From the NCBI GenBank assembly GCA_001872545.1, contig MNWN01000011.1:2089-66088 (forward strand): a DNA stretch of 64,000 bases, given 5' to 3'. This DNA comes from Parcubacteria group bacterium CG1_02_58_44 (GTDB taxonomy: Bacteria > Patescibacteriota > Patescibacteriia > SG8-24). The notes under the pieces are model-generated. The model saw nothing but the letters and a program-made list of their open reading frames with translations, did not search any database and was not told where the DNA came from. Every line of letters begins with the position of its first letter. Within the stretch, counting starts at the first letter, position 1. Made by a program: the position numbers and the translations under genes. This document shows positions 21,969 to 62,277 of the stretch, piece by piece.

Positions 21969-21973
21969 GACAT

Positions 21974-41735: not shown

Positions 41736-41820
41736 TCCAAAATATAAAGTTTTATCCTCGGCCACCGAGGAGTCGAAGGGGACGGTCTGGACTCGTGGCA
41801 GTAGCGAATTCTTCAAACAT

Positions 41821-43962: not shown

Positions 43963-44072
43963 AGCGTCCTCAATGCCCCAGTTTGACGCGAATGGTCGTT
44001 TGATGTAGCCTTTTCCCGGCAAGGAGGCGCGATTTACAGACATCCTTAATCAGAAAGGGGGGTGAGTTTTTC

Positions 44073-44324
44073 GTGATTGAAGTCAAACGCAAAAAAGGGG
44101 AGAGCTTCGAGAGCTTGCTGCGCAGGTTCGGTCATTGCATGCAGGACAGCGGTCGGATGATACAGGCCCGAAAGATTAGGTTTCATACCGATCTGCCGAA
44201 CAAGAACGCAACCAAGGCCACGGCCCTGAGAAGGACCGAACTGCGCGAGAAGCGCGAGTATCTCATCAGAAGCGGTCAGGCCACCGAAGAGGATTTTCGC
44301 CGCCGCTCCAAACGTCGCCGTTGA
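44073..44324 (+). CDS. rpsU: 30S ribosomal protein S21
   Basis: MIEVKRKKGESFESLLRRFGH...RRRSKRRR matches S21. GTG start with an upstream aaagggggg Shine-Dalgarno. Confidence 0.85.
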   Translation: MIEVKRKKGESFESLLRRFGHCMQDSGRMIQARKIRFHTDLPNKNATKATALRRTELREKREYLIRSGQATEEDFRRRSKRRR

Positions 44325-44375
44325 CGGCATTTCGACGTTTTTGGGATTCCCCATAATTATTTTATCGCCAAACCG

Positions 44376-44831
44376 ATGGACACCCGTGAACGAATGGACA
44401 AGGATTTCACCGGTGCGGTCAAGGCACGTGATGCATTCGCAGTCTCAGCGCTGCGAATGCTTCGTGCTGCACTGAAGAACGCCGAGATAGAGAAGATGTC
44501 CGCTCTTGTTGAGGACGACGTCGTCGACGTCATCTCCAGGGAGATCAAGAAGGTCAGGGATTCGCTCGAGTCGTTCGAATCCGCCGGCCGTACTGATCTG
44601 GCGGACAAGGCTCGACAGGAGATCGAGATCATCTCTCGGTATCAGCCGACCCAACTGACCGATGACGAGATCAGGTCCGTAATAAAGAAAGTTATTGCGG
44701 ATCTTTCTGGCAATGGAACGATGAACTTCGGACAGGTCATGTCCGGCGTGACCAAGGAGACCAAAGGGCACGCTTCGGGCACCAGAGTCAGTCAGCTGGT
44801 TAAGGATGAGTTATCCAGTACCGCTCCGTAG
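44376..44831 (+). CDS. GatB/YqeY domain-containing protein
   Basis: DFTGAVKARDAFAVSALRMLRAALKNAEIEK ... VIADLSGNGTMNFGQVMSGVTKETKGHASGTRVSQLVKDEL is typical of YqeY. The rpsU-yqeY adjacency is conserved. Confidence 0.8.
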   Translation: MDTRERMDKDFTGAVKARDAFAVSALRMLRAALKNAEIEKMSALVEDDVVDVISREIKKVRDSLESFESAGRTDLADKARQEIEIISRYQPTQLTDDEIRSVIKKVIADLSGNGTMNFGQVMSGVTKETKGHASGTRVSQLVKDELSSTAP

Positions 44832-44883
44832 CTTTTTTGTATATACTTGAAAAGTTAATTGAGTTTCACATAGCCTTCTTTCC

Positions 44884-47130
44884 ATGCTTGGAAGGTATGG
44901 GTACCGCAACCGGCCCAAGGTAGGGTCTTGGTTGCATATTCGAAACGCCAGCAGAACCTTGGTTTTGGTGGCTTTTGTTTTACTCGTTTTATTTTTGCCG
45001 GAAATTGTGTCGGCTCAGCTCACCACCGGTGACGTCGGGTTGGACTTCGCCACCGCGACCGGCTTGGCCACTACAGACATCAGGGTCTTCGTCGGACGGG
45101 TGATCAACGCCTTTTTTGCCCTGCTCGGATTCATCGCCGTTCTGCTTTACGTCTACGCCGGATATCTGTGGATGACATCAACAGGCGATGCGGCCAAGGT
45201 CGACCAGGCCAAGAAGGTCATCACCAACACGACCATAGGGCTGGTCATCATGATCATGGCCTACTCGATTACGGCCTTCATTATCCAAGCCCTCACCGGA
45301 CATTCGATCGTTCCCGGTGTGGGTGACGGGGACAGCCGACGCGATAGGGGAGACATGCCCATCGGCGACCGAACCTATGAGCTCGGTAACGGAATCATCG
45401 AATACCACTATCCGGAAGTCGGACAGGTCGACGTTCCGCGCAACACGAACATATCGATAACCTTCAAGCGGCCGTTGGTCCTGTCGACCGTTTTCCGCAA
45501 CTATGATGACGCCGGAACCTACGGAACTGAAGACGATACGGTCGGCGGCGTTGCGGTGCCGGAAGTCCTTCAGCTCAATACCGACAATTTCAAGATCATC
45601 GCCGTCGCCGACTTGGGAGGGACGGACGGTGCCAGTCCGGACGAGCGGTTCAGTACTAGGTATCCGGACAGCGGAGCGCTGGTCGATCCGCCGCCTACGG
45701 TTCGGGTTACGGCCGTAAGGGTAGTTTTTGATCCGTTGGAGGGTCAGACCATCACCATCTCTCCGGCGCTTCCGATCGGCAGCCCCACCACTGATATCGC
45801 CTATCGCGTGGCCCTCAAGGGAGGCGACAACGGCATCAAGGTCTGGTGGCCTGGCGTAACGGAAGGTGCAGAACTCGTTCAGAAGAACGCCTTCAGTTCG
45901 ATGAATGCGGACGGCGGCTACTACTGGCCGTTTACGACCGGAACTATGCTTGACCTGACGCCGCCGCACATAACGTGGGTAGAGCCGACGCCGGTTATCG
46001 ATCCGGGCCGCCCAGAAAACGTAGCAGCTCGCAATCAGCTGCTGCAGATCTACTTCAACGAGGCGGTCGATCCGACCACGGTGAGCGGCATCATCGGTGA
46101 GGGCGGCGGATTCACCAATATAGAGGTAAGGGCTCGCTGCCTGCCGGACACCGACTGCGACTTTAACGATGGAGTGGATTTCACTTCCGTTTCGGGCAAG
46201 ATCTTCATAGGCAATCGCTACAGGACGGCCGAGTTCGTGCCTAGCGAACCTTGCGATGGCGTTACCGAGAACACCTGCGGCAACCAGGTTTTTTGCCTAC
46301 CGCGCAACGTCGAAATTCGTGTCCGTGCCCTAGCTGCGACGTTGAGCTCGGAACCGCCGAAGGCTTCACGTCCGGACGGCGTGTTGGACATGGTCGGCAA
46401 CTCGTTCGACGGCAACGGCAATGGTACGGCCGAGGGTCCGGAGAGCGCGGAGCGTCGGACTGACTTCAATCGTAACAGTCCGCCCGCTGCACTAGCGGGA
46501 ATCAACGATACGGCCCGGTGGACTTACCATGTCGGTGAGAGGATCGACCTCGTGCCGCCGACGATCATGGACATCGACCCCAAGAGCCCGCCGCCGATCG
46601 ATCGGGCCCATCCGGAGGGGCCGTCGAAGGTTCCGACTGATCTGCCGATAACAGTTCTGTGGGACAAGACCATGAGTGTCATGTCGATGCGGACCGGTGC
46701 GTACGACGAGGACGAGAATGCCTTCTCCGACGACCGGACGACTATTTCCCTACGTTCCAAGGAACTGGCCAAGGAAAGCCTGGATCAGGACTGTTCCGAT
46801 CCGGATGTGGCCTGTCCGTACGTCTCGTTGGATCCACCGTACTTCTTTATAGATCTGGGTGAAGGTCCGGAGGAGATCGGTGGTATCAAGAGGACCAGAA
46901 TGATGATCACACATCGTATCTTCTTCACGGCCAACGACATGGGCTACACCATGGAAGAAACGGCTTCGTGGCCCGAACGCTTGCCAGTCTATCAGCCGGT
47001 CATCGGAGCTCAGATACAGGACACGCTTCAGAACTGCTTTTTCCCAAGTGTCGGATGGAATTGTGATATGGGCGACAACAACTCTTGCTGCAATCGGGTC
47101 GGTCAGGAGGACTATTTCTGTCCGCTTTAG
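44884..47130 (+). CDS. Large secreted protein (748 aa) with an N-terminal signal peptide, a VirB2/TrbC-type pilin-like module (two TM helices), SbsA/Ig-like domains and a Cys-rich C-terminus
   Basis: SAQLTTGDVGLDFATATGLATTDIRVFVGRVINAFFALLGFIAVLLYVYAGYLWMTSTGDAAKVDQAKKVITNTTIGLVIMIMAYSITAFIIQAL is highly similar to the N-terminus of the adjacent giant protein. Downstream are Ig-like stretches (NTNISITFKRPL, LQIYFNEAVDPTTV, LPITVLWDKTMSV). Confidence 0.7.
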   Translation: MLGRYGYRNRPKVGSWLHIRNASRTLVLVAFVLLVLFLPEIVSAQLTTGDVGLDFATATGLATTDIRVFVGRVINAFFALLGFIAVLLYVYAGYLWMTSTGDAAKVDQAKKVITNTTIGLVIMIMAYSITAFIIQALTGHSIVPGVGDGDSRRDRGDMPIGDRTYELGNGIIEYHYPEVGQVDVPRNTNISITFKRPLVLSTVFRNYDDAGTYGTEDDTVGGVAVPEVLQLNTDNFKIIAVADLGGTDGASPDERFSTRYPDSGALVDPPPTVRVTAVRVVFDPLEGQTITISPALPIGSPTTDIAYRVALKGGDNGIKVWWPGVTEGAELVQKNAFSSMNADGGYYWPFTTGTMLDLTPPHITWVEPTPVIDPGRPENVAARNQLLQIYFNEAVDPTTVSGIIGEGGGFTNIEVRARCLPDTDCDFNDGVDFTSVSGKIFIGNRYRTAEFVPSEPCDGVTENTCGNQVFCLPRNVEIRVRALAATLSSEPPKASRPDGVLDMVGNSFDGNGNGTAEGPESAERRTDFNRNSPPAALAGINDTARWTYHVGERIDLVPPTIMDIDPKSPPPIDRAHPEGPSKVPTDLPITVLWDKTMSVMSMRTGAYDEDENAFSDDRTTISLRSKELAKESLDQDCSDPDVACPYVSLDPPYFFIDLGEGPEEIGGIKRTRMMITHRIFFTANDMGYTMEETASWPERLPVYQPVIGAQIQDTLQNCFFPSVGWNCDMGDNNSCCNRVGQEDYFCPL

Positions 47131-47161
47131 CCGCTTCCTTTTTTAGATCTAAGAACAGGTC

Positions 47162-50100
47162 ATGCGCATAGACCGAAAAAAATTGGTAACTGCCGCGGTG
47201 GTGGTCTTTGGTGTGGCCCTGCTCGTATTTCCGGTTTTGGCGCAGACCGATTTGGGTTTGGATTACGCAACGTCGACCGGTCTTGGTACGACCGACATCC
47301 GGACAATCATCGGCAACATCGTCAACTACTTCCTTGGGCTGTTGGGCATCATAGCCGTACTGCTGATCCTCTACGGCGGCTTTAAGTGGATGACGTCGCA
47401 GGGCAACGAGGAACAGGTCGCCGATGCGAAGAAGATCATCGTCTCCAGTGTCATCGGTTTGGCTATCATCCTGTCCGCTTTTGCCATCGCGCAATTTATT
47501 CTAAGAGCGATAATCTCTGGCACCGGATTCGAAGGTGATGTAGGGCCAGGAGGCGGACGGTGTCCGCCTGGAGAGGTCTGCGGCATACCTGGAGCCGGCT
47601 CCGGCGGGTTTAAAGTCTCCGGCGTGGTGCCGGCCGGCAACGGTCCGGGAGGTTCCGGCTGGCCCAAGAACTACGCCATTACCGTTGCCTTTAGCCATGA
47701 AGTCGCGGCGGCAACCGTTAACGGAACTTCCTTTGTGGTGGAGAGGTGCAATCCGCGGTTGTCTGGCGGTGACCCTGCTCCGTTCAATGAGAGGAATTGC
47801 AATACCGTAGTTTCGGGTACTCGGACAGTTGAGGCTAATCGAATAGTCTTTAGACCCGACGATACGCCTGGAGACTATCCTACCGATTTCGAAGAAGATT
47901 ATTGGTATCGGGTACGGGTACTCGGTGGCGACGTCACCGACGTTCGTGGTCGAATTCTGGTCTGTCCTTTCTTGCCGCCGGGTCCGGACGGTGACATTTC
48001 GTCACCACGTGCGCTGTCGAGCCTGTGCGACCGGGCCATGGCCTTCAACAACCTTCGCGATGTCGAACCTCCGACCGTCAGGATCGACTCTCCTGCTTCC
48101 GCACCAGCCTACTGCCTGGACCGGATTCGCATCCGGGCCAGGGTGGAGGACGACTTCCTTCCGTCAAGGGTCGACTTCATGTTGGATGGGGGTCTGGCTC
48201 ACTTGATGGACGCCGACGACGAGCCCCTGTTTAGCGTTATCAATGCCGCACTGGATAATCCGTTCCTGTCCGATTCGGTCTTCATCGATTCCTCGAGTTT
48301 GGCCGATGGCGAGCACACCCTGTCCGCCGTCGGTTACGACGGCGTGCCCCAGGCCAGTGAGGCGGTCGACAAGAGGTTCAGGATAAATCCGGCCCATTGC
48401 TGTGACAGCGTACTGGATGCCGAGCTGGGTGAGGATGAGATAGATTGCGGTGCGGAGTCCGGCTGTGGTGCATGTCCGGAAGGTTTGTGTACAGAAGATG
48501 CCGATTGCGCGTCGGGTCTCTGCGAATCAGGGCACTGTGTGGCACGTCCGACGATACTCGATGTCTCTCCACTGAGGGCCGGACCCGGGACGCTGGTGAC
48601 GATCAGCGGTCGGTACTTCGGCGGAACCATGGGTCAGGTAGTTTTCTTGGGTGGCGATACGGACGGGGACGGTGAGGAGGCGGGGGATGACGACGACAGG
48701 TCGGCGGCTGCCTGTTCGCCCTGGTCCTGGTCCGACGATGAGGTAGTGGTCGCAGTTCCGGACGGAGCGGTCACCGGACCGCTGCAGCTGATCACCTCAG
48801 CCGGAACTTCGGATCGCACTGACGATGATTTTGAGCCGATGATCGGTGCCTTCTCTGTCAATGACGAGGTTTTCCCCGGAATCTGCTATCTGGAACCGAG
48901 TACAGGATCGGCCGGCGATCGGTTCATCGCCCACGGTGCCGGCTTTGGGGATGCCATGGGTGCCAGCCTGATCAGGATGGGTGGGGTGAGCGCCGACGTG
49001 GCGGCCGGAGGCTGGACGGCCTCGGCCGTTTCCGCCGCCGTTCCGTCCGTGCTGGCCGAGGGTATCTATCAGGTTGGGGTGATGGTCGGCGGACTGGACG
49101 GCATCGCGACTAACCAGCTCAACTTTACCCTGCGACGCCGCGACGAGGACGTCGGACCGCGAATAATCGAGATACTCCCGTCTTCCGGTCCGGTCGGCTC
49201 CTATGTCACCCTGCGCGGCACCGGTTTTGGACGGCGTAAGGGATTGGTCAGGTTTTTTTCTTCGCCGGACGGAGTCGACGGAATCGATTCGGCCATAGCC
49301 GCCGATCCGATCTGCGACGACAACTGGCATGATAACTACATCGTCGTAAAAGTACCGGACAAGTACATTGGCGACCTGGACATCGATCTAATTCGTCATC
49401 GGGTAGAGGTCGAGACGGCCGCTCCGGCTCAAACCAGTAACCGAGTAGACTTTTTGATCGATGGCAGTCCGTTGACGCCAGGAATGTGCTCGATTACGCC
49501 TGACAACGGCAAACCGGGCATACCTGTGATCGTATCGGGCGAGGGTTTCGGGCCGGGTCCGGCCAACGTAGACGCTCCCGGTTTCGCTGGGTTTGACGGC
49601 CGTCAGCCGGAAAGTTCGCTTCGTTTTTACGTTTCTGGGGCGGCGGCTGCTCCTGGTTTGATGGACGGCTTGATTACCAAGCCGTCGACGGCCTATTTGT
49701 GGTCTAGAACATCCGTCCGATCGGCGATCCCCGGCAATCCGGCCGACCGGAGCACTTGGCCGAATTCCGGTCCGGTTTTTGTCGTGGCTCGTAATGTGGC
49801 CACCCGCAATCCGATTCCGTTCAAGATTGGCGACTGCAATGACGATGGGATTTGCGAGGAGGGGACAACCTGCTGTGCCAACGGTTCGTGCCGTGAGTCC
49901 TGCGAACCGGAGGCTCGGAACAGTAAGTTCGGCTGGTACTTCAGTACCGACGTCCTACCTACCTTGCCCGTAGTGATACAGCGATCTTCCTGCAATATGG
50001 TGGCCGGCACCATTCAAAGTCCGACACCACAACACAGGGCGACCGATGCCTGTCGCAATGCTGAGGCGGCTGTGGAGTTTAGTCAGCCGATGAATATCGG

Positions 50101-53100
50101 TTCGCTGGACGATCCTGAGTCGCTGCTCATTGAGGAATGCGGTAGCGGTCGCGATATCGACTGTGCCGACCCACCAGTTGTCGTGCCGATCGCCAGACCG
50201 GTCGGGACTGACCTGACTGCAGACGGCATGACTATTCTTTCCATCCATCCGAGCAGTTTGGTTTATCCGCCGAACGATCTCGATGATGACGAGAACGAGC
50301 CGTTTACCGGTTACTTCAAGATCGGCACTTGGTATCGGGTGACCTTGGTTTCCAAACCGGGCGAAGTCGGCATTTTCGACACGACCGGCCGGTATCTGGA
50401 CGGAGATTATGATCGACGGGCCGGTGGTAATTTCACCTGGACTTTCAGGACAAGGACCGATCCGGCGGCCTGCGCTGCCGACAGCGTCATGGTCCTGCCG
50501 TCACGCTATACGATCACCCATCAGGGCATGCCCCCGGATCCGGACATCGGATTTAGCGCCGCACTGATGAACGGAGCCAACTGCAACAGGCTGCAGTGCG
50601 TCGGCCGTGAAGGCTTTGACCTGAGATGGTCGAGCGATCCGGGTGTATTCATCAGTTTGCTTGGTGCCGGTCCGGTCGCCGGATGTCGACAGCAGGTTAC
50701 AGGTCTGCTCGAGACCCCCGTTGACGCACCGGAAAGACTGACTGTATCCCTGCGGCCGGTCGGTGAGCTGCTGGACCGCAGGAGCACTTCGGCAGTGTCC
50801 GTAGCCTTCGCCGATCCGCGGGTAGTGCGGGTCATGCCGACTGAAGGCTGCACTGAGGCCTGTGTCAACGCGGTGGTCGGCGCGGTTTTCAACATACCGA
50901 TGAGTGCGCGGTCTTTCGCCGGAAACGTCGAACTGCTGCAGTGCCGCAACTCTTCCTGCAACCCACCTTTCGTTCCGATTGAGTTTACGGTCACGTCAGT
51001 CAGGGACGATGGTATCCGTGTGCTTCCGCTCGGCGATCCCGATGCGGTCCTTCAGGTCAGGATAGAGCCGGTTCCTGATGTCGGGGAGATGCCAAGGTTG
51101 ACGCCTGATACCTTCTTTAAGGTCAGAATCAGGGGCGGAGCCGACGGGGTTCTTTCCACGAGTGACATACCGCTCACTGGACTCAACACGCCCGGCTTTT
51201 ACGAATGGAAATTTAAGACTAGGACCGACGGCAGCATCTGCGAGATCTCTCGGGCGGAGATTGTTCCGCCTAACGCCACCTTGCGTTACGTAAGCGAACG
51301 TTTCGGCCTCAGTGTCGGAGCGTACGGACCGGCTGGTGACGAGTGCAGTCCCGACGGTCAGGAGATAAACGCCTGGGGCTATGATTGGGACTGGTCGGTC
51401 GATCCGAATCCCGTCCTGGTCGGTTTCATCAGGGCTAGAGATGTTGGTTCGGAAACCGGAATAGGCATCAGAGTCGACACGAATCCAGCGCCGAGGCGCG
51501 GCTGCGACAGCCAATGTCTGTTGGTCGGCTCGACCGATGTCGTTTCGCAGTGCGGAAACACCGATCCGGCTGATCCTCGTCCGCCTAGGGATCGGGCCGA
51601 GATTGGGGAGGACTGCGACGATGGCGATATCGACGGAGGCGACGGCTGCAGCGCGAACTGCCTGGCCGAAGGTTCTGCCTTCCCGACTTGCGGCAACGGC
51701 CGGTTGGATTCGGGGGAGCTGTGTGAGGCGCTTCCCGATGGGGAAGGGACCTTAGTCTTTCCGTTGGGCTGCAAGGATCCCAATATAAATATTGATGACA
51801 GGCCTGAACTTAACGACATAGGCTGTATTTTCTTGGGGTCTACGGCTGGAGGGTCGGTCTGTGGCGACGGTATTTGGGGTGACGGCGAAGCCTGTGAGGA
51901 CGGAAACCGACGCGATGGCGATGGCTGCAGCGCGGACTGTCTTCATGAAGGGACGTTTTCTATATGTACGGACGCTACGCCGGTGGACGTAAGATGCGTC
52001 AGTCAGTGCGGCAATGCCCATATTGAGCCGGGCGAGGATCCGGACTGTGACTTGGCCGGAGGCGTCGCATTGGGTTGCGATTTGCACTCTTGCACTAAGA
52101 CCGGTTCGGAGTCAGCTCAATGTTTGAATGATCATCTAGATCCGGGGGAGGAGTGTAGAGATGGAAATACTGATAACGGCGACGGCTGCAGCAGCCGCTG
52201 TCTGCTTGAAGGATCGTCGGCCTTCTATCGGGTACCTTCCTTTTGTGGTGACGGGTTTGTCGGACAGGGCGAGCATTCGTACTGTGACGGTGACGAAGTT
52301 GAGCCCGACAGGCTGATTGACAGTCGACAGATTACGGTCGCCGGAGACTACGATTCGACCGCCGGCGCCGCTACGACGAGCGTAGTGCATGCTTCGGTCG
52401 ATCGGCTGCCGGAAGGTTCCAGGGGTAACTCACGCGTGACGCTGACCTGTAACTGCAGCTCACAGGTCAGTCCCGACGGGTACTGTTTGGGACTGCTGGA
52501 CGGAGTGCCGGCCGCCCTGCGGCCGCCGGCCGGTTTGGCCTGCGCCGATTCGGGCTGCTGCGCACCTAGACCTTACGGCAGGCTGACCTATCCGGTTGAG
52601 GGCTCGGTCGGTATCTGCCGCAACACCGCCATACACTTGGAATTCGATCAGCCCATGAACGCCACTTCAATTAGTCAGAATCTATTGATCGGCGTCGACA
52701 GTGGTCCAGACGGCTGTCCGGCGGCTTTGGACGGCGGTCCAGATGAGAGCGGGGTCATTGAAGTACCGCCCTTCCCTCCGCCCCTGCCTGGACCGTTGGC
52801 CGTTGGGCCTGGCGGCCTGCTTCGTCGGGCTTGGTCGGCTGTCGCTGCATTTTTCGGTGACCTGTTCGGCCGGCCGGCTGCAGGTCATGCCCTCGGTATC
52901 CCGCATACCCATTTCTGCTCGATCACTGGAGATGTCACCGTTAGACTGACGGACGAGTCTAGAACCGAGGTCGAGTTTATGCTCGATCACGCCTTGCCTG
53001 CGGGAACCAGAATTAGGGTTAGGGTCCAGCCGGATGCCAGGACGATCGGCGGAGTCAGAATTAATCCGGCCGGACTGACTGCTGAGTTCACCACCGGTGA

Positions 53101-56100
53101 TCTGATCTGCGCCGTCGATCGCGTGATCGTCAGTCCGGAATCGGTCTTGCTGAACAGCGTTCGGGCTCCGGACCGGCCTCTCGTGGCTCGTGGCGTGTCC
53201 GACGACCGCGGCATTCGTGTCGACGGCGATGCCGCTAGTCTGATCGTGCCGACCAGGGAATACTCTTGGTCATGGGAATGGCTGCCGCTCTCTGAGAGGC
53301 TGCCGCATGTCTCTCCGGCCGTACTGAATCCGGTCACTGTCGGAGGGCGGCAGAGCGAGCGAGCGATGGTTCGGGTCAGGGGGCGCGAAACCGGGGACGA
53401 TCCGATCGGATACGTGCCGCAGGACGGTGTTGTAAATGTTTCGGTCAATGCTGTCACCGTCAATCCTGACGGTTCCGTTGCCCGTCTGCCGGTACTCGAC
53501 GGGCTTACCGGTCTGCCCGTACCAGATGAGTTCGTACTCCCTGGTAGTTCAACGGTTACGGTCGCGCTTTGTGACGTCATCTGGCCAAAGGTTCAGACCT
53601 GCGGCGATGATGGGAGGCTGCATCTGCCTTGGGATCCGGACAATCTACTCAATCCGCTCCATGGTGAAGAATGTTCGGCTGGAGTGGAACAGTTCTGGTA
53701 TCCCTTCACGGATCCGGAAACGAAAGCCAGCTTCTACTACTGCCGTGACATCTCGGGAGGCGACGGCGACGATCTTCTGCCGGCCATCGATGAGGATTTC
53801 GTTCTCGTCCACCCGGGCGGCGACATCCTGCACGAGTATCTCTTCACCTTTGCCGGCGCTGGGGCCGGTGATGCTTGGCAGAAAGATGCCGTAGGTTTCC
53901 GGACAATGTACAACCCGAGGCATATCGGCGTGGCCGACTGGTATCGCGACCGCGGTTTCTCCGGTGCGCCGATGCCGTTCAATGTCGACGGATACGACGC
54001 CATGAAGGAAGGTCGGACCGTCTACGTCAATTCCGCGTTTCTGGACGACACCCTGCATCTTTCCACTAACGTCAACGTCTTTTCGTTCAGTGACGGGTCC
54101 GCACCGGAGACGGTCACGGTCTTCAACCAGATAATGAATCGCATCAACTTCAACCGGCAGTCGGGACTCATGGACACTTTCATCTGTCAGGACGACGGCC
54201 GGGCGGTCTTGGACGAGGGCGGAAGCGCTTTGACCTGTTCCATCGATCTCGACTGCACGACAGGCACCTGTGGTGTCCCGAAGTCGAAGCTCGTACGTGA
54301 CGTGCGACGCTGGTCGGACCTTCACACCATGAGGTCTCTTCTCATGGCCAATCGTCCGCTTCCGACATTGGGCGAAGGCACCTTCATACGCTCCAGGACG
54401 TACAGCATCTGGCCGTCATGGGGCGACGTCCTGTCCCTGTCCGTCGGACGAACCATGCCGTCGGATCCCATAAACGCATTGGCATCTTGTTCGAGCGACG
54501 GTTTTGATTCGGAGACCTGCTGGAATTCGGTCAGTCGTGAGTTCAGTTGCGGAAGCCGTTCCAGCATCTATAGGTATCAGATCTTGGCCGGTCAGGCCGA
54601 TCTGTCCGTAGACATGGAGCTGGTCGGTCCGAAATGGAAAGGCACGACCTGCATCGAGATAACGGACAGTGTTGCCTGTGGGGCCATGTCTGGCTGTGTC
54701 TGGACAGGCGCTCCACCGAGCGGTAGCTGCAACTACGAGACCGTCAGGTTCCGTGCCTATGGGATAAACGCCGGTGCCGACATGTGTACCGGAGCGGTTG
54801 AGAGTGAGGAGGCGGGCTGCGGTAACGGCATCATCAATTCCGGTGAGGCCTGCGAACTGGGAGACCTCAGGACTCAGGAAGGAGCAGACGGTATCTGTGT
54901 CGGCGGAACCGTGGAGCAGGCCTGCACGTCGGACTGTCGCGGCTGGGAGGACGTACCCGGAACCTGCCGGATCGGCTACTGCGGCGACGGACGGAGACAG
55001 GGGGCCGAAACCTGCGATGACGGACCGCTCAACGGGACGTACGGGCACTGCAACGGCATCTGCAGAGGTTCGACCTTTTACTGTGGCGATGGTCTGTCCC
55101 ATCCCAGTGAGCTGTGCGATTGCGGCAGCTTGAATGGAAGTTATGCGGTCAACGCGGTTATTGCGCCATCGGGTGGGGTTCGTGCTTGTAGCACTGAAGA
55201 ACCGCGCACTGGGGCTAGTTTCGCTTCCTGTTCCTGGGATTGCCGTGGTCCGGCTCCGCACTGCGGCGACGGCATCATCAACGGCGTCGAGCAGTGCGAT
55301 GGCGGTTCTGAGGAGAGTCGTGGCGTTTGTCGGCGACCGGCTGACGACCCGCTGCATCCGTCGGGAGGCACCTGCACGGCAGACGCCGACTGCAATCTCG
55401 CGGGCGGGGAGCGCTGCGTGACCTGTCTGACTGTCGAACAGAGGTTCCGTCGGGCCTGCAACCCGAATAACGTCACTTCGGCCGATGACGAAAGAGATGG
55501 AGTGCCCAATCAGTCCTGTCACTGGAGTGCCTGGTCGTGTACCGCCCCCGGACGTTGCGGCAACGGCGTGACCGAGACCGGCGAGCAGTGCGACGACGGC
55601 AACGACGAGGATAACGATGCCTGCACCAGCGCCTGCATCAGCAACGTCTGCGGCGACGGATTCGTGAACGCGGCCGGCGGCGAGCTGTGCGACAGCGGCG
55701 GAAGGAACAACACTCCCTGCGTGCCCGAGTACGGGCATACCTGCAACTACTGCACTTCGGCCTGCCGATTGGGTACGGTTTCTGGCGGCTACTGCGGCGA
55801 CGGCCTGCTCCAGAACGCCAGTTCGGAGATACCGGGTCCCGAACAGTGCGACACGCACGGTGTGGTCATCGGTGACGGTTGGGTCTGCGTCAGCACCAGG
55901 CCCAAGGACAGGAGCTTCGGTACGCAGACCGGCTACGGCATCTGCTCGCTGAGCGGATGTGGCTACTCCTGTGCGGACAGAGATTCGGAGCTGTGCCAGA
56001 ATGATGCACTCGATGGCAATTCAGACCTCATACTTCCCGAAAGTTTTGAGGTAAGCATGGCGTCCAGGCCTGAATCCTGCGCCTTTATGGATTACGTTCC

Positions 56101-57238
56101 CTTGCGCATGGCTCCGCCGGTTGGAGGGCGGAGTCCGGGCAGCGAGCCCAGGTCGCTTTTCGAGTTCTGTTTGGATCGGCAGCGTCTGGTCGGCGGCAGT
56201 TCGGGAGAGCCTCCGTTGGCCAGACTGTCTAATAATTGCGATTCGGACGACGACAACGACGGCGTTCCGGACGAATTGGACTGTGGCCCCACAGATCCGT
56301 CGGTCAGGCCGGAGTATCGGATTCCGGGCACCACTCTGGTGGTTCCGGCCGGAGATCAAGAATGCACCGGCGACGGCAACTGCAACGGAGATTTTGGAGA
56401 TCTTCCGCCGTATCTGCATAAGAAGGTTGACATGGTGTTCGTCATCGACGTGACAAGGTCGATGAACAGCATCATCGACTCCCTGATCGACTCCCTGAGT
56501 GATTTCGTCACTAATCTTAGCGGTGCCAGAGGAATAGATCTCCAGTTTGGTTTCGTGACTGTAGGGCAGGCTGAGACTTTAACGCTCAGCATGATGAAGT
56601 CCCATCCGGTTCGTCCCGCCCTAGGGCCGTACATGTTTGCCCAGCTCGACGACATCGGTTCGTTTGGCGACAGCTTGCAGGCAATGAGGGACAATTGCTG
56701 GAGTAATGACGGTCACCATACTGACTTATGCTCTGTCGGCAAATATGAACCCCTTTATGCCGCAGCTTATGCCCTAATGAGACCCGGATCGGTCAGCTGC
56801 GGTCCGGAGGACGGCTGTGACCCGGCATTGGACCAGGTGTTGGATTACGGCATCGCATGGCGGGACGATGCCCAGCCGTATGTGGTGATAGTCGGCGATG
56901 AACCGCCGCCGGTGGGCGCGACATGGAGTGGTGACGATATGACCGGACGGGAGGAAGCTGAGGGGCTCCTGAGGTATATTGATCTTAATCGCGTCGCCGA
57001 TGCGGCCAAGGACTGTACCTTGCCCGGATGCGCTGACGGCGGCTATGTGGAGCTTTTCGTGATCAGTCGGCGGGTCAACAGGGATTACTGGTTGGATGTC
57101 CTGCCTACGACAGAAGACGGTTCGCGTCTGACGGCCGAACAGCGTTACATCAGTTTTGATGACGGCGGCGGGACCAATGGGCTCAACGGCGAGGCCTTGG
57201 TCGCCAGCATATTTCAGTACATCTGCCCTGCTCCCTGA
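47162..57238 (+). CDS. Giant multidomain surface protein (3358 aa): signal peptide + VirB2/TrbC-like pilin module + SbsA/Ig-like + several IPT/TIG-like domains + Myxococcus-type Cys-rich repeats (DUF4215-like) + Asp-rich calcium-binding-type segment + C-terminal von Willebrand factor A domain
   Basis: The N-terminus LAQTDLGLDYATSTGLGTTDIRTIIGNIVNYFLGLLGIIAVLLILYGGFKWMTSQGNEEQVADAKKIIVSSVIGLAIILSAFAIAQFIL. IPT-like PTILDVSPLRAGPGTLVTISGRYFGG, PRIIEILPSSGPVGSYVTLRGTGFG, PGMCSITPDNGKPGIPVIVSGEGFG. Cys repeats GEDCDDGDIDGGDGCSANCLAEG, GEACEDGNRRDGDGCSADCLHEG, GEECRDGNTDNGDGCSSRCLLEG, GEQCDDGNDEDNDACTSAC. The segment CDSDDDNDGVPDELDCGPTDPS. The VWA/MIDAS start VDMVFVIDVTRSMNSIIDSLIDSL. Single uninterrupted ORF of 10,077 nt. 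Confidence 0.8.
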   Translation: MRIDRKKLVTAAVVVFGVALLVFPVLAQTDLGLDYATSTGLGTTDIRTIIGNIVNYFLGLLGIIAVLLILYGGFKWMTSQGNEEQVADAKKIIVSSVIGLAIILSAFAIAQFILRAIISGTGFEGDVGPGGGRCPPGEVCGIPGAGSGGFKVSGVVPAGNGPGGSGWPKNYAITVAFSHEVAAATVNGTSFVVERCNPRLSGGDPAPFNERNCNTVVSGTRTVEANRIVFRPDDTPGDYPTDFEEDYWYRVRVLGGDVTDVRGRILVCPFLPPGPDGDISSPRALSSLCDRAMAFNNLRDVEPPTVRIDSPASAPAYCLDRIRIRARVEDDFLPSRVDFMLDGGLAHLMDADDEPLFSVINAALDNPFLSDSVFIDSSSLADGEHTLSAVGYDGVPQASEAVDKRFRINPAHCCDSVLDAELGEDEIDCGAESGCGACPEGLCTEDADCASGLCESGHCVARPTILDVSPLRAGPGTLVTISGRYFGGTMGQVVFLGGDTDGDGEEAGDDDDRSAAACSPWSWSDDEVVVAVPDGAVTGPLQLITSAGTSDRTDDDFEPMIGAFSVNDEVFPGICYLEPSTGSAGDRFIAHGAGFGDAMGASLIRMGGVSADVAAGGWTASAVSAAVPSVLAEGIYQVGVMVGGLDGIATNQLNFTLRRRDEDVGPRIIEILPSSGPVGSYVTLRGTGFGRRKGLVRFFSSPDGVDGIDSAIAADPICDDNWHDNYIVVKVPDKYIGDLDIDLIRHRVEVETAAPAQTSNRVDFLIDGSPLTPGMCSITPDNGKPGIPVIVSGEGFGPGPANVDAPGFAGFDGRQPESSLRFYVSGAAAAPGLMDGLITKPSTAYLWSRTSVRSAIPGNPADRSTWPNSGPVFVVARNVATRNPIPFKIGDCNDDGICEEGTTCCANGSCRESCEPEARNSKFGWYFSTDVLPTLPVVIQRSSCNMVAGTIQSPTPQHRATDACRNAEAAVEFSQPMNIGSLDDPESLLIEECGSGRDIDCADPPVVVPIARPVGTDLTADGMTILSIHPSSLVYPPNDLDDDENEPFTGYFKIGTWYRVTLVSKPGEVGIFDTTGRYLDGDYDRRAGGNFTWTFRTRTDPAACAADSVMVLPSRYTITHQGMPPDPDIGFSAALMNGANCNRLQCVGREGFDLRWSSDPGVFISLLGAGPVAGCRQQVTGLLETPVDAPERLTVSLRPVGELLDRRSTSAVSVAFADPRVVRVMPTEGCTEACVNAVVGAVFNIPMSARSFAGNVELLQCRNSSCNPPFVPIEFTVTSVRDDGIRVLPLGDPDAVLQVRIEPVPDVGEMPRLTPDTFFKVRIRGGADGVLSTSDIPLTGLNTPGFYEWKFKTRTDGSICEISRAEIVPPNATLRYVSERFGLSVGAYGPAGDECSPDGQEINAWGYDWDWSVDPNPVLVGFIRARDVGSETGIGIRVDTNPAPRRGCDSQCLLVGSTDVVSQCGNTDPADPRPPRDRAEIGEDCDDGDIDGGDGCSANCLAEGSAFPTCGNGRLDSGELCEALPDGEGTLVFPLGCKDPNINIDDRPELNDIGCIFLGSTAGGSVCGDGIWGDGEACEDGNRRDGDGCSADCLHEGTFSICTDATPVDVRCVSQCGNAHIEPGEDPDCDLAGGVALGCDLHSCTKTGSESAQCLNDHLDPGEECRDGNTDNGDGCSSRCLLEGSSAFYRVPSFCGDGFVGQGEHSYCDGDEVEPDRLIDSRQITVAGDYDSTAGAATTSVVHASVDRLPEGSRGNSRVTLTCNCSSQVSPDGYCLGLLDGVPAALRPPAGLACADSGCCAPRPYGRLTYPVEGSVGICRNTAIHLEFDQPMNATSISQNLLIGVDSGPDGCPAALDGGPDESGVIEVPPFPPPLPGPLAVGPGGLLRRAWSAVAAFFGDLFGRPAAGHALGIPHTHFCSITGDVTVRLTDESRTEVEFMLDHALPAGTRIRVRVQPDARTIGGVRINPAGLTAEFTTGDLICAVDRVIVSPESVLLNSVRAPDRPLVARGVSDDRGIRVDGDAASLIVPTREYSWSWEWLPLSERLPHVSPAVLNPVTVGGRQSERAMVRVRGRETGDDPIGYVPQDGVVNVSVNAVTVNPDGSVARLPVLDGLTGLPVPDEFVLPGSSTVTVALCDVIWPKVQTCGDDGRLHLPWDPDNLLNPLHGEECSAGVEQFWYPFTDPETKASFYYCRDISGGDGDDLLPAIDEDFVLVHPGGDILHEYLFTFAGAGAGDAWQKDAVGFRTMYNPRHIGVADWYRDRGFSGAPMPFNVDGYDAMKEGRTVYVNSAFLDDTLHLSTNVNVFSFSDGSAPETVTVFNQIMNRINFNRQSGLMDTFICQDDGRAVLDEGGSALTCSIDLDCTTGTCGVPKSKLVRDVRRWSDLHTMRSLLMANRPLPTLGEGTFIRSRTYSIWPSWGDVLSLSVGRTMPSDPINALASCSSDGFDSETCWNSVSREFSCGSRSSIYRYQILAGQADLSVDMELVGPKWKGTTCIEITDSVACGAMSGCVWTGAPPSGSCNYETVRFRAYGINAGADMCTGAVESEEAGCGNGIINSGEACELGDLRTQEGADGICVGGTVEQACTSDCRGWEDVPGTCRIGYCGDGRRQGAETCDDGPLNGTYGHCNGICRGSTFYCGDGLSHPSELCDCGSLNGSYAVNAVIAPSGGVRACSTEEPRTGASFASCSWDCRGPAPHCGDGIINGVEQCDGGSEESRGVCRRPADDPLHPSGGTCTADADCNLAGGERCVTCLTVEQRFRRACNPNNVTSADDERDGVPNQSCHWSAWSCTAPGRCGNGVTETGEQCDDGNDEDNDACTSACISNVCGDGFVNAAGGELCDSGGRNNTPCVPEYGHTCNYCTSACRLGTVSGGYCGDGLLQNASSEIPGPEQCDTHGVVIGDGWVCVSTRPKDRSFGTQTGYGICSLSGCGYSCADRDSELCQNDALDGNSDLILPESFEVSMASRPESCAFMDYVPLRMAPPVGGRSPGSEPRSLFEFCLDRQRLVGGSSGEPPLARLSNNCDSDDDNDGVPDELDCGPTDPSVRPEYRIPGTTLVVPAGDQECTGDGNCNGDFGDLPPYLHKKVDMVFVIDVTRSMNSIIDSLIDSLSDFVTNLSGARGIDLQFGFVTVGQAETLTLSMMKSHPVRPALGPYMFAQLDDIGSFGDSLQAMRDNCWSNDGHHTDLCSVGKYEPLYAAAYALMRPGSVSCGPEDGCDPALDQVLDYGIAWRDDAQPYVVIVGDEPPPVGATWSGDDMTGREEAEGLLRYIDLNRVADAAKDCTLPGCADGGYVELFVISRRVNRDYWLDVLPTTEDGSRLTAEQRYISFDDGGGTNGLNGEALVASIFQYICPAP

Positions 57239-57244
57239 TTCCTT

Positions 57245-57769
57245 ATGAACAAAAATAATCTTATTTTGATAGTTCTGGGTGCAGCGGCGGTTTTGGCCGT
57301 CGGTATGGCCGTGTTTGCCGTCTTGCGTAATCGGCAGCCGGCCGTGAGTCCACTGGACCGGTTCGACGAACATGGTGCCGTGGAGGTTCCGGTGGGCATC
57401 GACGACGACGGCGGACCGATTGAGGAGACAAGGGCAATCTGCGGCGACGGCATCTGTACTGCGGCCGAGTCCGTAGACATCTGCTGGTCGGATTGCGTCG
57501 ACTACGGTTCGTTCAGCGACATTAGCCTGACGAACCTGTCCGCCGGTCAGGTGGAGATTACCTGGAAGACCTCCAAGCCCATGACTTCGGCCGTAGATTA
57601 CGGCTTCAGCGAAAGCTACGAACTCGGTTCGGTGTCCGATTCCCAGCTGTTGACCGACCACAGACTGTTGACGGTCAGACTGAACGGCAGTGAATTTTTC
57701 TTCAGGCTGCGGGGGACCGACGGGGAGGGCAACGAGGAATCCTTCTCTAGTTTGGGCAACGAAAGATAA
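57245..57769 (+). CDS. Small single-pass membrane protein with a Cys motif ([19 protein letters not shown]) and an FN3-like segment; paralog 1 of 3
   Basis: N-terminal [24 protein letters not shown], then the CGDGxC...CxxDC motif shared with the next two genes and with repeats in the giant protein. Confidence 0.6.
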
Positions 57770-57777
57770 TCGCCCTT

Positions 57778-58590
57778 TTGCAGGGTAACCAGAATCGCAT
57801 TCATATGTTCGAAGAGCAGAACGAGCCGGTAGACATATTTTCGGAAACGGAACCGGCCAAGGACGGCGGCATCAGTCCGTCGGTCGGCAGCCAACCTCCG
57901 GTTATGGGCGGATCGCCGCCGTCTTCCGGAACTTTACCTACACCGGTGTCTGGCATAACTCCCCAGATAGACATCGCCGCATCTAGGGGTCCGTCCAAGA
58001 TCCTGTTCGTCGTAATTTTTCTGCTGCTGGTCGGTGCAGTCGGCGTCGGTATCTGGTATTTCGTTCTTAGTGGCGACGGTGCAGTTCCGGTCGGGAACGA
58101 GCCGGCCGACGTCAATTCGAACGATTCCGGTTCGGCGATAGACGTTCAGATTCCGGAGCCGGAGAATCGATCGCTTTGCGGTAACGGAGTCTGCGATCTG
58201 GATGAGGACAAGTTCTCATGTCCGGCGGACTGTCCGCTGATTTCGCCCGTTTGCGGCGACGGCATCTGTCAGGCCGACGAGGGCAGCTTGGACTGTCCGG
58301 CCGACTGCCAGGCCACTCCCGACGAGCCGGTCATGCCGCCGGAACCGGCGAATCAGCCGCTCGACACGGACGGCGACGGCCTGAGTGACGCCGAGGAGAC
58401 GGCACTCGGCACCAATCCGCAGATGGCCGACACTGACGCCGACGGGCTGACGGACCGGGAGGAACTGCGTCAGTACTCGACCGATCCGACCAGTCCGGAC
58501 TCGGACGGCGACGGCTATATCGACGGCGAGGAGGTGTGGGCCGGTTACGACCCCAACGGCCCAGGCAAGCTGCTTAACTTGCCCCAGTAG
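57778..58590 (+). CDS. Single-pass membrane protein with two CGxGxC..CPADC Cys motifs and Asp-rich TSP3/calcium-binding-like repeats; paralog 2 of 3
   Basis: [128 protein letters not shown]. Confidence 0.6.
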
Positions 58591-58613
58591 CTGAGGGCTA
58601 TTCGATAGGTCCT

Positions 58614-59873
58614 ATGGCAGACGAAAAGAAAATTTCCGACGGTTTGGACAGGCCCTCCGGCACCTTAACGTCTTCGACGTCCGACGCCGACGAGCCGGAG
58701 ATTTTCGTAATGCCGGAGGAATTCTATGGGGCCGCCGTCAAGCCCAAGCCGGAAGCGGCAGTGTCGTCAGCCTCACCTGCGGTTTCGTCGCCTGCAGCCG
58801 TCTCGACCGTCAAGACGGGCAAAGGTTTCACCGTGGCGATCGTCACCTTAGCCGCGATCTTGGTCGTTGCCTTGGGAGTCGCGGTCTATTTCGTGTTTTT
58901 CTCCGGTCCGAAGTCCGTCTGCGGTAACAACCTCTGCGAGTCAGGCGAAACGTTTGCGGCCTGCCCGAACGACTGCGAACCGCCGCCGTCGGTCTGCGGC
59001 GACGGTGACTGTGAGAGTTCCGAGAGCTACCTGTCCTGCCCGTCCGATTGCCGCCAGCCAGATGCCGTCTGCGGGGACAGACAATGCAACGGGGACGAGA
59101 CTGCCGAATCTTGTCCGGAGGACTGCCGGCCGCCGGCTGAGTGCGGCGACGGACGATGCGAAGCCGACCGTGGCGAGAGCTATGATTCCTGCCGGAGCGA
59201 CTGCCAGCCGCCTGAGCCGGTGCCGTCAGTCGATACCGACAGCGACGGTCTGACTGACGTCGAGGAGACGAGTATCTACGGCAGCGACCCCAATGGCACC
59301 AACAGCGACGGCGACAGTTTCGTTGACCTGAACGAGGTGATCAACCTTTTCGATCCGGCCAAGAAGGAACCGGCCCGCCTGATCGACAGTCCCGGAATCT
59401 CCGCCTATCGGAATGAGGATTACGGATTCGAGATTTTCTGCCCTACAGCTTGGGGCAAGAGTGACCTGCCGTCCGAGCAGTCGGTGCGCTTTACTTCGCC
59501 GACCGGCGAGACGGTTAAGGTGACCGTCTTTATCAAGCAGCCGGAGACGACCTTGGACGATTGGTTACGGTCCTCTTCGGTCAGCGGACTGTCGGCAGTC
59601 GGACAGGCCGGCCGGTCTATCAACCGCCATGGCTACGAGCAGGTGACCATGTCGGACCGTCGGACAGTGCTGATTTCGGACGGCACAAATGTAGCCCTGC
59701 TGCGTTACGACCTGGAAGGCCAGCTCGAGGTGCGCTATCGGGTGACGCTGTCCGTCATGGCCAACAGCTTGACTTTCGTGACCAAGCCCTCTCCGTCAGC
59801 CGAGACCTTGTCGGGAACCGGGTCGGTTCTGCCCGTATCTGAATCGTCGGATGCAGAATCGGATCGTCCTTAG
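58614..59873 (+). CDS. Single-pass membrane protein with four CGxxxC..CPxDC Cys motifs, Asp-rich calcium-binding-like repeats and a C-terminal globular domain; paralog 3 of 3
   Basis: TM VAIVTLAAILVVALGVAVYFVFF. CGNNLCESGETFAACPNDCEPPPSVCGDGDCESSESYLSCPSDCRQPDAVCGDRQCNGDETAESCPEDCRPPAECGDGRCEADRGESYDSCRSDCQPP. DTDSDGLTDVEETSIYGSDPNGTNSDGDSFVDLNEV. Confidence 0.6.
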   Translation: MADEKKISDGLDRPSGTLTSSTSDADEPEIFVMPEEFYGAAVKPKPEAAVSSASPAVSSPAAVSTVKTGKGFTVAIVTLAAILVVALGVAVYFVFFSGPKSVCGNNLCESGETFAACPNDCEPPPSVCGDGDCESSESYLSCPSDCRQPDAVCGDRQCNGDETAESCPEDCRPPAECGDGRCEADRGESYDSCRSDCQPPEPVPSVDTDSDGLTDVEETSIYGSDPNGTNSDGDSFVDLNEVINLFDPAKKEPARLIDSPGISAYRNEDYGFEIFCPTAWGKSDLPSEQSVRFTSPTGETVKVTVFIKQPETTLDDWLRSSSVSGLSAVGQAGRSINRHGYEQVTMSDRRTVLISDGTNVALLRYDLEGQLEVRYRVTLSVMANSLTFVTKPSPSAETLSGTGSVLPVSESSDAESDRP

Positions 59874-59925: not shown

Positions 59926-60393
59926 ATGCTGACTATAGACCTGTCCGGACGACCACCGCGGGGGGTGACTGCCGATTCGATGCAGAAATTGACCGTCGCC
60001 GCCTTCAGGATGGCAGGCGGCATCGGGGACGTTCACGTTACGTTTTCGGTAGTCGACGATCGGACCATGATGGGGCTGAATTTCCGGCATCGCGGCGTGA
60101 AGGGGACGACTGACGTGCTGTCTTTTGCCTACGGCACCGACAAGGACGGTTGGCCCGAACCCGACCGAGATGGCAGTCATAAACTTCTAGGCGAGATAGT
60201 CATATCCAGACCGCAAGTGAGCCGTCAGGCCAAGAAGATCGGCAGGACGGTCGCAGACGAGTTTTCGGTTATGGTGGTTCATGGCGTGCTGCATCTGATG
60301 GGTTACGATCACGCCACGAGATGGCAGGAAGACGAGATGTTCGGCCTCCAGCATGAAATTTTGATGTCGCAGAGAATTATTTTCCATCCATGA
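59926..60393 (+). CDS. ybeY: rRNA maturation endoribonuclease YbeY
   Basis: The metal-binding motif HGVLHLMGYDH and UPF0054 architecture. Length is 155 aa. Confidence 0.88.
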   Translation: MLTIDLSGRPPRGVTADSMQKLTVAAFRMAGGIGDVHVTFSVVDDRTMMGLNFRHRGVKGTTDVLSFAYGTDKDGWPEPDRDGSHKLLGEIVISRPQVSRQAKKIGRTVADEFSVMVVHGVLHLMGYDHATRWQEDEMFGLQHEILMSQRIIFHP

Positions 60394-60764
60394 TATTCAG
60401 CTCAAGACAGCTTAGAAGAAGCTTTTCGTTCGCCCTTTCCGGCCTGCGTCGTGTGCTGCATGACGAGCAGAACTTTCGTCTGCAGATGCTCGTCGGTCTT
60501 CTGGTCATTGTCGCCATGTTTTTTTTCGACCTGAGCAGCCTGGAGAGGGCCGTTTTGACGCTTGCGATCGCCTTTATCCTCGTGCTAGAATTGATGAACA
60601 GTATTTTTGAACGGGTTGCCGATCTGCTCAAGCCTAGAGTGCACATGCATGTGCAGGAAGTTAAGGACATCATGGCCGGAACGGTACTGCTGGCCTCCAT
60701 GGCTGCGATTCTGGTGGGACTGCTTATACTATGGCCACACCTGACGAACGAGCTGTTCGGTTAA
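60390..60764 (+). CDS. dgkA: Diacylglycerol kinase/undecaprenol kinase family protein (DgkA)
   Basis: Three TM helices. ERAVLTLAIAFILVLELMNSIFERVADL is the DgkA catalytic-region signature. Overlaps ybeY by 4 bp. Confidence 0.8.
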   Translation: MIFSSRQLRRSFSFALSGLRRVLHDEQNFRLQMLVGLLVIVAMFFFDLSSLERAVLTLAIAFILVLELMNSIFERVADLLKPRVHMHVQEVKDIMAGTVLLASMAAILVGLLILWPHLTNELFG

Positions 60765-60782
60765 GGCACTACGTCGGATACT

Positions 60783-62033: not shown

Positions 62034-62277
62034 GTCGACTGCTGACCAGTTGGGTATGGACCGATGCGACAGGCGTCGGTTTTGTTTTTTGTCTGACGAA
62101 AAAGCGGCCGTTCGTCAGTTTGGGTCTGCGAATACCTTTTTTGTTCATTTTTAGTTCAAAATCGCTTGACGACTGGTTCTCTTCTCCCATACTCTTACCC
62201 TGTGTTTTGAGATTCTATGGGGAGGTCTCGTTCGGTGCCGAAGTTCGGGTGCCGGGGCCGCCGTTAATCACAAGTCT

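Follow-up and report, generated by a model that had tools for sequence, protein, structure and literature searches.

Why should a bacterium with a genome of roughly 1 Mb keep about 15 kb of surface-protein genes between two blocks of housekeeping genes, and was this locus acquired or inherited? The question is raised by a 64,000-nucleotide stretch of contig MNWN01000011.1 from Parcubacteria group bacterium CG1_02_58_44 (assembly GCA_001872545.1, positions 2,089 to 66,088), which is called the window below. The initial annotation of this DNA had proposed a candidate surface-appendage or adhesion locus of five co-directional genes at 44040-59873. All five open reading frames (ORFs), here G1 to G5, were present on the + strand as described. 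However, the locus proper started at 44884, the preceding nucleotides (44040-44883) belonging to an rpsU-like gene and yqeY, and it extended over 44884-59873 (14,990 bp, 23% of the window). G2, the stalk gene, alone accounted for approximately 1% of the genome. The locus is vertically inherited and conserved across the whole GTDB class ABY1, and it seems reasonably probable that it encodes a pilin-hairpin-anchored fibrillar adhesin complex of ABY1 Patescibacteria. Its genes and their parts are given below (aa, amino acids; TM, transmembrane; AF2, AlphaFold2 model).

44884-47130, + strand: G1, pilin-module surface protein of 748 aa (ORF and profile search)
44884-45015, + strand: G1 signal peptide, aa 1-44, with predicted cleavage between VSA and Q (hydrophobic helix aa 26-44)
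45079-45297, + strand: G1 VirB2/TrbC-like helical hairpin, aa 66-138 (AF2 helices 66-97 and 103-138; TM-like segments 73-91 and 116-134)
45361-47127, + strand: G1 ectodomain, aa 160-748, rich in beta structure, with Ig-like sandwiches and conserved cysteines
47162-57238, + strand: G2, giant pilin-module surface protein of 3,358 aa (ORF and profile search)
47162-47500, + strand: G2 signal peptide and VirB2/TrbC-like hairpin, aa 1-113 (signal peptide 8-26; TM-like segments 53-71 and 92-110)
47651-49384, + strand: G2 membrane-proximal Ig-like block, Big_5 at aa 164-264, Big_7 at 304-389 and TIG repeats to approximately aa 741 (Pfam)
51689-52351, + strand: G2 cysteine-rich acidic repeat cluster 1, aa 1510-1730 (TIGR02232 and DUF4215; CG[DN][GR] sites; DNA repeats D2, D6 and D7)
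54818-55891, + strand: G2 cysteine-rich repeat cluster 2, aa 2553-2910 (DUF4215; CG[DN][GR] sites; DNA repeats D1-D4)
56162-57235, + strand: variable tip at the C-terminus of G2, aa 3001-3358, which includes the VWA-like segment DMVFVIDVTRSM (weak VWA_4 and TssR_VWA matches, E approximately 0.3)
57245-57769, + strand: G3, single-pass membrane protein of 174 aa (ORF and hydropathy)
57778-58590, + strand: G4, single-pass membrane protein of 270 aa as listed (ORF and TSP3_bac profile)
58614-59873, + strand: G5, single-pass membrane protein of 419 aa (ORF, hydropathy and AF2)
59376-59783, + strand: G5 C-terminal PsbP/Mog1-fold domain, aa 255-390 (Foldseek against PDB)

Predicted anchor and ectodomains of G1 and G2

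In both G1 and G2, a leader peptide preceded a hydrophobic hairpin of two helices, as judged from hydropathy and, for G1, from the AF2 model. In G2, this module scored 46.5 bits with PF18895 (T4SS_pilin, cut-off 26.6) and 28.1 bits with PF04956 (TrbC, cut-off 27.9), and it came within one bit of NF045849 (Mbov_0395 pilin-like, 39 bits versus a cut-off of 40). G1 scored 26.4 bits with PF18895, marginally below the cut-off; precomputed PF18895 matches were present on G1 homologues, and the N-termini of G1 and G2 were 45% identical over 119 aa. A PDB sequence search with the module returned nothing significant. The module was confined to the first 138 aa of G1 and the first 113 aa of G2, and neither protein is a small protein consisting of the pilin domain only. 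Both proteins thus carried the pilin module that the initial annotation had ascribed to them, but of the "two pilin-module giants" only G2 is giant. The G1 family showed the consensus PxxAxAQ at the leader cleavage region, where G1 would be processed.

In VirB2/TrbC pilins, the N- and C-termini of the hairpin lie outside and the loop is cytoplasmic. With this topology, the C-terminal extensions of G1 and G2 should be located outside the cell, a placement that fits their Ig-like and TIG content, their cysteine content of 4.4%, the calcium-binding repeats, and the presence of a DsbA-like gene in the window. The AF2 model of G1, with a predicted local distance difference test (pLDDT) score of 86 and a predicted template-modelling score of 0.78, consisted of the helical hairpin and an Ig-like ectodomain, and G1 also matched Big_5 in Pfam. 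A Foldseek search of this model against PDB gave nothing beyond generic Ig and antibody matches (E>0.008). The G1 homologues formed 78 clusters, every one of them from Patescibacteria.

The same module was found on a third protein of the window, which is unlinked to the locus and lies next to the DsbA-like gene.

21189-21968: DsbA-like gene, upstream neighbour of the third pilin-module protein (DSBA and Thioredoxin_4 matches)
21803-23944, + strand: third pilin-module protein, approximately 655 aa from Met58, the probable start (PF18895, 33.5 bits)

Its cysteine-rich ectodomain of approximately 480 aa contained 6.4% Cys, and the gene was the codon-usage outlier of the window (relative synonymous codon usage (RSCU) r 0.57; GC content at third codon positions (GC3) 0.53). 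Because the module also heads this unrelated cysteine-rich protein, it appears to be a reused N-terminal handle, or generic anchor, in this genome. No canonical anchor (LPXTG, SLH, CWB, etc.) was matched in the proteins of the locus by Pfam or NCBIfam.

Behind the hairpin, the G2 stalk was composed of Big_5 (61.6 bits), Big_7 and TIG (51.9 bits) domains, further Big_5 pieces, and cysteine-rich repeats that matched TIGR02232 (myxo_disulf_rpt) with 84.5 bits. Residues from approximately 1950 to 2500 had no Pfam match. The stand-alone 765-aa protein P0079, encoded on a 487-kb contig, was 31% identical to this region, which implies that this part of the stalk also occurs outside the giants; the search that returned it missed even its self-match. 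G2 was collinear with its orthologues over 2,500-3,300 residues at 25-79% identity, from 79% in the sister genome to 36% over 3,090 residues (L006) and 26% over approximately 2,470 residues in a 2,256-aa version. Given this collinearity, the 10-kb ORF cannot be a chance ORF. Antisense ORFs within G2, for example at 54416-55858, were taken as high-GC artefacts.

Residues 1-1200 of G2 were used as the query of an exhaustive search of clusters at 50% identity, and 765 clusters were retrieved at E<=1e-30. Among the best 150 of these 765 clusters, the median length was 3,220 aa, and the N-terminal pilin module occurred in 147. When 109 giants were compared pairwise, residues 131-530 matched in 78% of the pairs and the middle in 47%, whereas the last 350 residues matched in 5%, and the tips fell into 23 clusters. 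The tips that could be named were C-type lectin and VWA-like. Lectin_C tips of G2 orthologues scored above threshold (29.7 and 63.6 bits), and the tip motif of G2 itself recurred in the L167 orthologue as DMVFAIDVSGSM (VWA_2, E 0.012); the tip was not conserved in the other orthologues. A conserved stalk with an exchangeable lectin- or VWA-type tip is the signature of a fibrillar adhesin.

The small membrane proteins G3 to G5

The initial annotation had described the remaining three genes as encoding small Cys-box membrane proteins. Each protein indeed contained one hydrophobic helix (TM 6-24 in G3, 75-93 in G4, and 76-94 in G5) and the motif CG[DN]GxC..E..C..DC, with one copy in G3 (aa 66), two in G4 and three in G5. 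A fourth, variant Cys box, CGNNLCESGETFAACPNDC, started at residue 103 of G5, as seen in the translation and in the G5-family alignment A4. However, the boxes were local: G4 orthologues and distant G5 orthologues lacked them, which ruled out the Cys box as a common hallmark of G3 to G5.

The slot of G3 was variable. G3 had no Pfam match, and a PDB sequence search returned nothing significant apart from a weak match of its FN3-like ectodomain to contactin-5 (E 0.06). One orthologue was found (L167_194, 27% identity, E 3e-14), and other genomes held different genes in this slot. G4 matched TSP3_bac (PF18884) with 64.4 bits against a cut-off of 25, corresponding to three calcium-binding repeats. 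Its orthologues in L165-L167 and L009 kept these repeats as well as the N-terminal motif MFD[DE]xxEPVDIFA. The true start of G4 is probably Met10 at 57805, because the orthologues begin with MFD[DE]xxEPVDIF.

For G5, approximately 45 full-length orthologues with 31-80% identity were identified. The family kept a short acidic cytoplasmic N-terminal motif, EPVIHVIPExFYGA, and one TSP3 region that was nearly invariant, although the TSP3_bac score of G5 (18.8 bits) was below the cut-off. An AF2 model built from 45 sequences had a pLDDT of 81. In Foldseek, its C-terminal domain matched PsbP of photosystem II (7pi0_P, E 2.8e-5) and CyanoP (2lnj, E 3e-5), both with a probability of 1.0. The matches to PsbP, CyanoP, PsbP-like NDH subunits and Mog1 ranged from E 2.8e-5 to 6e-4 with a probability of 1.0, those to Mog1, Tsi3 and the Eag/SciW chaperones being weaker than those to PsbP and CyanoP. 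The Pfam PsbP profile reached 21.1 bits, below its cut-off of 23.5. The acidic motifs of G4 (57805-57850) and G5 (58680-58730) loosely resembled the FtsZ C-terminal peptide, which reads EEDLEIPAFIRRKMP in the FtsZ of this window.

Conservation and origin of the locus

Spacing within the stretch from G1 to ybeY was 6-53 nt. On the + strand, the order was lepB, hisS, the rpsU-like ORF, yqeY, G1, G2, G3, G4, G5, ybeY, dgkA, ftsA, ftsZ and the start of an nrdR-like ORF. The core-gene flanks proposed initially were therefore recovered on both sides, with a weak S21 match for rpsU and with nrdR read from the sequence.

44073-44324, + strand: rpsU-like gene (S21 profile, 22 bits, weak)
44376-44831, + strand: yqeY (YqeY Pfam, 150.6 bits)
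59926-63555, + strand: ybeY, dgkA, ftsA and ftsZ, the downstream flank (Pfam)
from 63575, + strand: nrdR-like ORF (MKCPVCS..., read from the sequence)

A scan for promoters and terminators gave counts equal to those of shuffled sequence and did not inform on operon structure. In the upstream flank, the listed lepB ORF (41488-42480) started with TTG upstream of tRNA-Val (41659-41735) and overlapped it. Because the orthologues have 193-246 aa, the real lepB start must be downstream of tRNA-Val.

We examined the conservation of this arrangement in a scan based on YqeY alignments, with one genome per GTDB species, which returned 80 loci. Wherever the CPR-type (candidate phyla radiation) string lepB-hisS-rpsU-yqeY was followed by enough sequence, a G1 orthologue came next (21 species), and a G2 orthologue followed G1 wherever the sequence extended. 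The rpsU-like gene and yqeY were directly upstream of G1 in 21 of the 21 syntenic genomes, and the site was occupied in all 21 informative ones. The block was conserved down to approximately 26% identity, and Ca. Uhrbacteria and Ca. Falkowbacteria were among its carriers. These two are separate candidate phyla at NCBI; as listed in Table S1 of PMC12102498, both belong to GTDB class ABY1. Nothing comparable was found at the YqeY loci of Nitrospirota and Acidobacteriota. The closest named relative was Ca. Uhrbacteria RIFOXYC2_FULL_47_19, whose G1 was 84% identical and which the same Table S1 (PMC12102498) lists as a VirB4-positive member of ABY1 with 1.04 Mb.

The downstream half was recovered by looking up G5 orthologues. 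L165, L166 and L167 showed G2, a small gene, a TSP3 gene, G5, ybeY, dgkA, ftsA and ftsZ; in these three, the full five-gene locus ran into ybeY-dgkA-ftsA-ftsZ. L009 and L162, which represent the same organism and have a G1 that is 28% identical, contained G1, a G2 of 2,256 aa, two small genes rather than three, ybeY, dgkA and ftsA. When metagenomes were scanned with a YbeY alignment, most of the contigs returned were short, unrelated ones from soil; the informative ones were L162 and L090, which carried the G5 C-terminus, ybeY and dgkA. A single empty site was found, on the 3-kb Patescibacteria contig L029 (1-3027). In it, rpsU-yqeY adjoined ftsA-ftsZ, not ybeY, since ybeY and dgkA were absent as well.

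Two further observations came from these contexts. In L047 (10528-13079), an MltG/YceG-like gene, recognized from its translation, and two genes for small secreted proteins lay between yqeY and G1. Several records with a CPR-type block (L012-L015, L017, L021, L034 and L059) had wrong NCBI titles, namely "uncultured Gammaproteobacteria", "Vicinamibacterales", "Candidatus Binatia" and "Acutalibacteraceae".

The composition of the locus was native. GC over 44-60 kb equalled the window mean, and the RSCU correlation of G1 to G5 with the housekeeping genes of the window (0.82-0.92) and their GC3 (0.66-0.74) were both inside the housekeeping range. No direct or inverted repeats flanking the locus were found, the repeats detected being coding Cys-box and TSP3 units. 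Profile searches found no integrase, relaxase or type IV secretion system (T4SS) gene in the window, the remainder of which consisted of housekeeping and envelope genes. In every context examined, genes of the T4SS families VirB4, VirB6 and VirB3 (Pfam) were also absent from the called genes up to 10 kb on either side, and no conjugation gene was seen in these intervals. The adjacency to conjugation genes that the initial annotation had named as contrary evidence was therefore not observed. The only argument for a recently acquired island, or for a leftover conjugative element, is that the pilin module shares its ancestry with conjugation proteins. Against native codon usage and GC, the lack of flanking repeats and mobility genes, and an orthologous position occupied in 21 species down to 26% identity, we regard recent acquisition as extremely improbable, and composition and synteny together led us to reject it. 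The absence of recent horizontal transfer and of mobile-element hallmarks, as first proposed, was thus borne out. The locus is also chromosomal and syntenic as expected of a lineage-specific system, but the lineage is the whole class ABY1, not one genus, and the word "inserted" can apply only to an ancient event.

Elsewhere in the window, further envelope genes formed a polysaccharide-type cluster on the - strand (336-9350), with a Bac_transf priming transferase, three GT4 glycosyltransferases and an 868-aa DUF4012 protein. A class A RNase P RNA (10449-10917, 169.9 bits) was 469 nt long versus 367 positions in the model and therefore carries insertions. A tRNA-Ile with the anticodon UAU, an uncommon bacterial way to read AUA, was located at 32159-32234.

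Function of the locus and comparison with known systems

From these features, we propose the following arrangement. G1 and G2 would be exported via Sec, their leaders being cut between AxA and Q, and the two-helix hairpin homologous to VirB2/TrbC pilins would then hold both proteins in the cytoplasmic membrane with the rest outside. G2 would form a fibrillar stalk of approximately 3,200 residues, built from Big_5, Big_7, IPT/TIG and disulfide-rich repeats and ending in an exchangeable binding tip, and G1 would be its compact partner, with approximately 590 residues of Ig-like domains on a paralogous hairpin. G3 to G5, with the N-terminus predicted inside and the C-terminus outside, would contribute small disulfide knots and calcium-binding TSP3 repeats, with G5 adding a protein-interaction domain of the PsbP fold; all three are probably accessory or scaffold subunits. 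Acting together, the five proteins would most likely attach the cell to a partner cell or to a polymer surface. That the leaders are cut, that the five proteins assemble physically and that they serve in adhesion are all predictions from sequence. As to the surface-appendage or adhesion role suggested at the outset, domain content, topology and the variable, ligand-type tips point to a surface or adhesive function; an appendage of the pilus type would go beyond these observations.

The pilus alternative nevertheless deserves attention. It holds that G1 and G2 are T4SS pilus subunits: a T4SS encoded at another site of the genome (VirB4, VirB6, VirB3 and TrsD) would pull the hairpin out of the membrane and polymerise it, and G1 and G2, as minor or tip pilins, would display their ectodomains on a conjugative-type pilus as the "missing adhesin". 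The scores of the G2 module with PF18895 and PF04956, and its near-threshold score with NF045849, a pilin-like family of monoderm integrative and conjugative elements, are in line with this idea. VirB2-like pilins were reported in 1,948 assemblies, near virB4 in 1,135 and often apart from it, and the same Patescibacteria survey detected no PrgB-type adhesins (PMC12102498). Pilins of the T4SS cluster are moreover essential in S. epibionticum (PMC10633639), and Table S1 of PMC12102498 lists both the nearest relative (GCA_001791745.1) and the locus-bearing Falkowbacteria genome L050 as VirB4-positive, with VirB4 encoded away from the locus. On the other hand, the locus sat in a housekeeping block in every genome examined, with no adjoining T4SS gene. 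Judging from F- and T-pilus structures, an ectodomain of 590 or 3,240 residues per subunit would misfit helical VirB2 packing and could be accommodated in one or a few tip copies at best. The occurrence of the module on the third, unrelated cysteine-rich protein points to a generic anchor. Table S1 of PMC12102498 also lists some VirB4-negative Uhrbacteria assemblies, which might carry the locus. On balance, we consider a pilus role unlikely. A structural role is less probable still: G1 and G2 could form a coat or S-layer-like scaffold, coupled to division through the G4 and G5 peptides, which would link it to FtsA/FtsZ. Such a complex would account for the fixed address beside ftsA-ftsZ and for the conserved cytoplasmic peptides.

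Several points weigh against the adhesin complex that we prefer. The VWA assignment of this G2 tip was under every Pfam threshold, the tip had no PDB sequence match, and most other tip clusters contained no nameable domain. A single complex of G1 to G5 is suggested by gene neighbourhood alone. Host-specific adhesins usually evolve quickly; a giant that is collinear throughout a class would be unusual among them, and an envelope-structural role would fit this equally well. Adhesion also leaves the fixed position beside ftsA-ftsZ unexplained, and the VirB4 genes listed for the closest relative and for the Falkowbacteria genome count here as well.

A bolder extension can be offered only tentatively. 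A VirB2-type hairpin may have been recruited as the handle of a class-wide core-genome giant adhesin of approximately 3,000 aa beside the division genes, also heading a smaller partner and other surface proteins, with G2 as the principal host- or partner-attachment organ of ABY1-type CPR bacteria. In one version, the T4SS would display G2 as a pilin-fused tip adhesin, the one that T4SS surveys did not find. In the other, G2 would act independently of the T4SS, and the cytoplasmic peptides of G4 and G5 would position it relative to the FtsA/FtsZ site.

To our knowledge, almost nothing has been learned about how CPR bacteria other than Saccharibacteria attach to their partners, and we know of no cultured member of class ABY1. 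The locus is likely a core attachment device of this class. It provides a concrete marker of five genes that is conserved and easy to recognise, its stalk gene has hundreds of relatives, and its fixed genomic address eases comparative work. A possibly sizeable share of the "VirB2-like pilin" matches in CPR surveys may be N-terminal modules of large surface proteins, not pilus subunits. The conservation of G2 is also at odds with a view of giant CPR surface proteins as fast-evolving orphans.

Compared with VirB2/TrbC pilins, the module of G1 and G2 has the same signal peptide, two long hydrophobic helices and short polar loop, and the profile matches of G2 were above threshold. Known VirB2/TrbC pilins, in contrast, are small and usually arrayed by virB4, virB6 and virB3, whereas here the module is only the first 3-15% of each protein, and both proteins are encoded amid housekeeping and division genes. 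The T4SS_pilin family has been described as restricted to or enriched in CPR (PMC12102498; 10.1101/2025.04.23.650224). VirB2-like pilins (PF18895 and PF04956) were catalogued across Patescibacteria as small proteins and arrays (PMC12102498), those encoded in the T4SS cluster of S. epibionticum are essential to it (PMC10633639; PMC12857230), and freshwater-specific structure clusters were dominated by PF18895 (10.1101/2025.04.23.650224).

The giant resembles fibrillar adhesins of monoderms (SasG; class in PMC9210967) in its long Ig-like, TIG and repeat stalk with a terminal binding domain (VWA-like or C-type lectin), extracellular and stabilised by cysteines or calcium. Its polarity is reversed, however: an N-terminal pilin-type hairpin replaces the C-terminal LPXTG/sortase or wall-binding anchor, and the tip is C-terminal. 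Moreover, the G2 stalk is collinear across the class and not rapidly shuffled, and its gene belongs to a fixed five-gene syntenic set. Like the giant FhaB/DUF2341 exoproteins of Patescibacterium danicum, also a member of ABY1 (PMC11809585), G2 is a very large predicted surface or adhesion protein. Those giants were reported without full-length homologues (PMC11809585), whereas G2 does not match FhaB, begins with a pilin module and is collinear over its full length with hundreds of relatives. With the cysteine-rich and TSP3 surface proteins of myxobacteria (TIGR02232; CglD, MtsD), the locus shares CGNGxxExGExCDDGN...C repeats (84.5 bits) and TSP3 repeats (64.4 bits). This likeness is confined to the repeats, since the equivalog scores were 25-30 bits versus cut-offs of 400-800 and the organism, anchor and context differ. 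A search of open-access papers found no account of pilin-module giants or of this syntenic block. The locus joins the VirB2-type pilin module to the fibrillar adhesin, both of them known kinds; the resulting architecture and its genomic setting appear to be undescribed.

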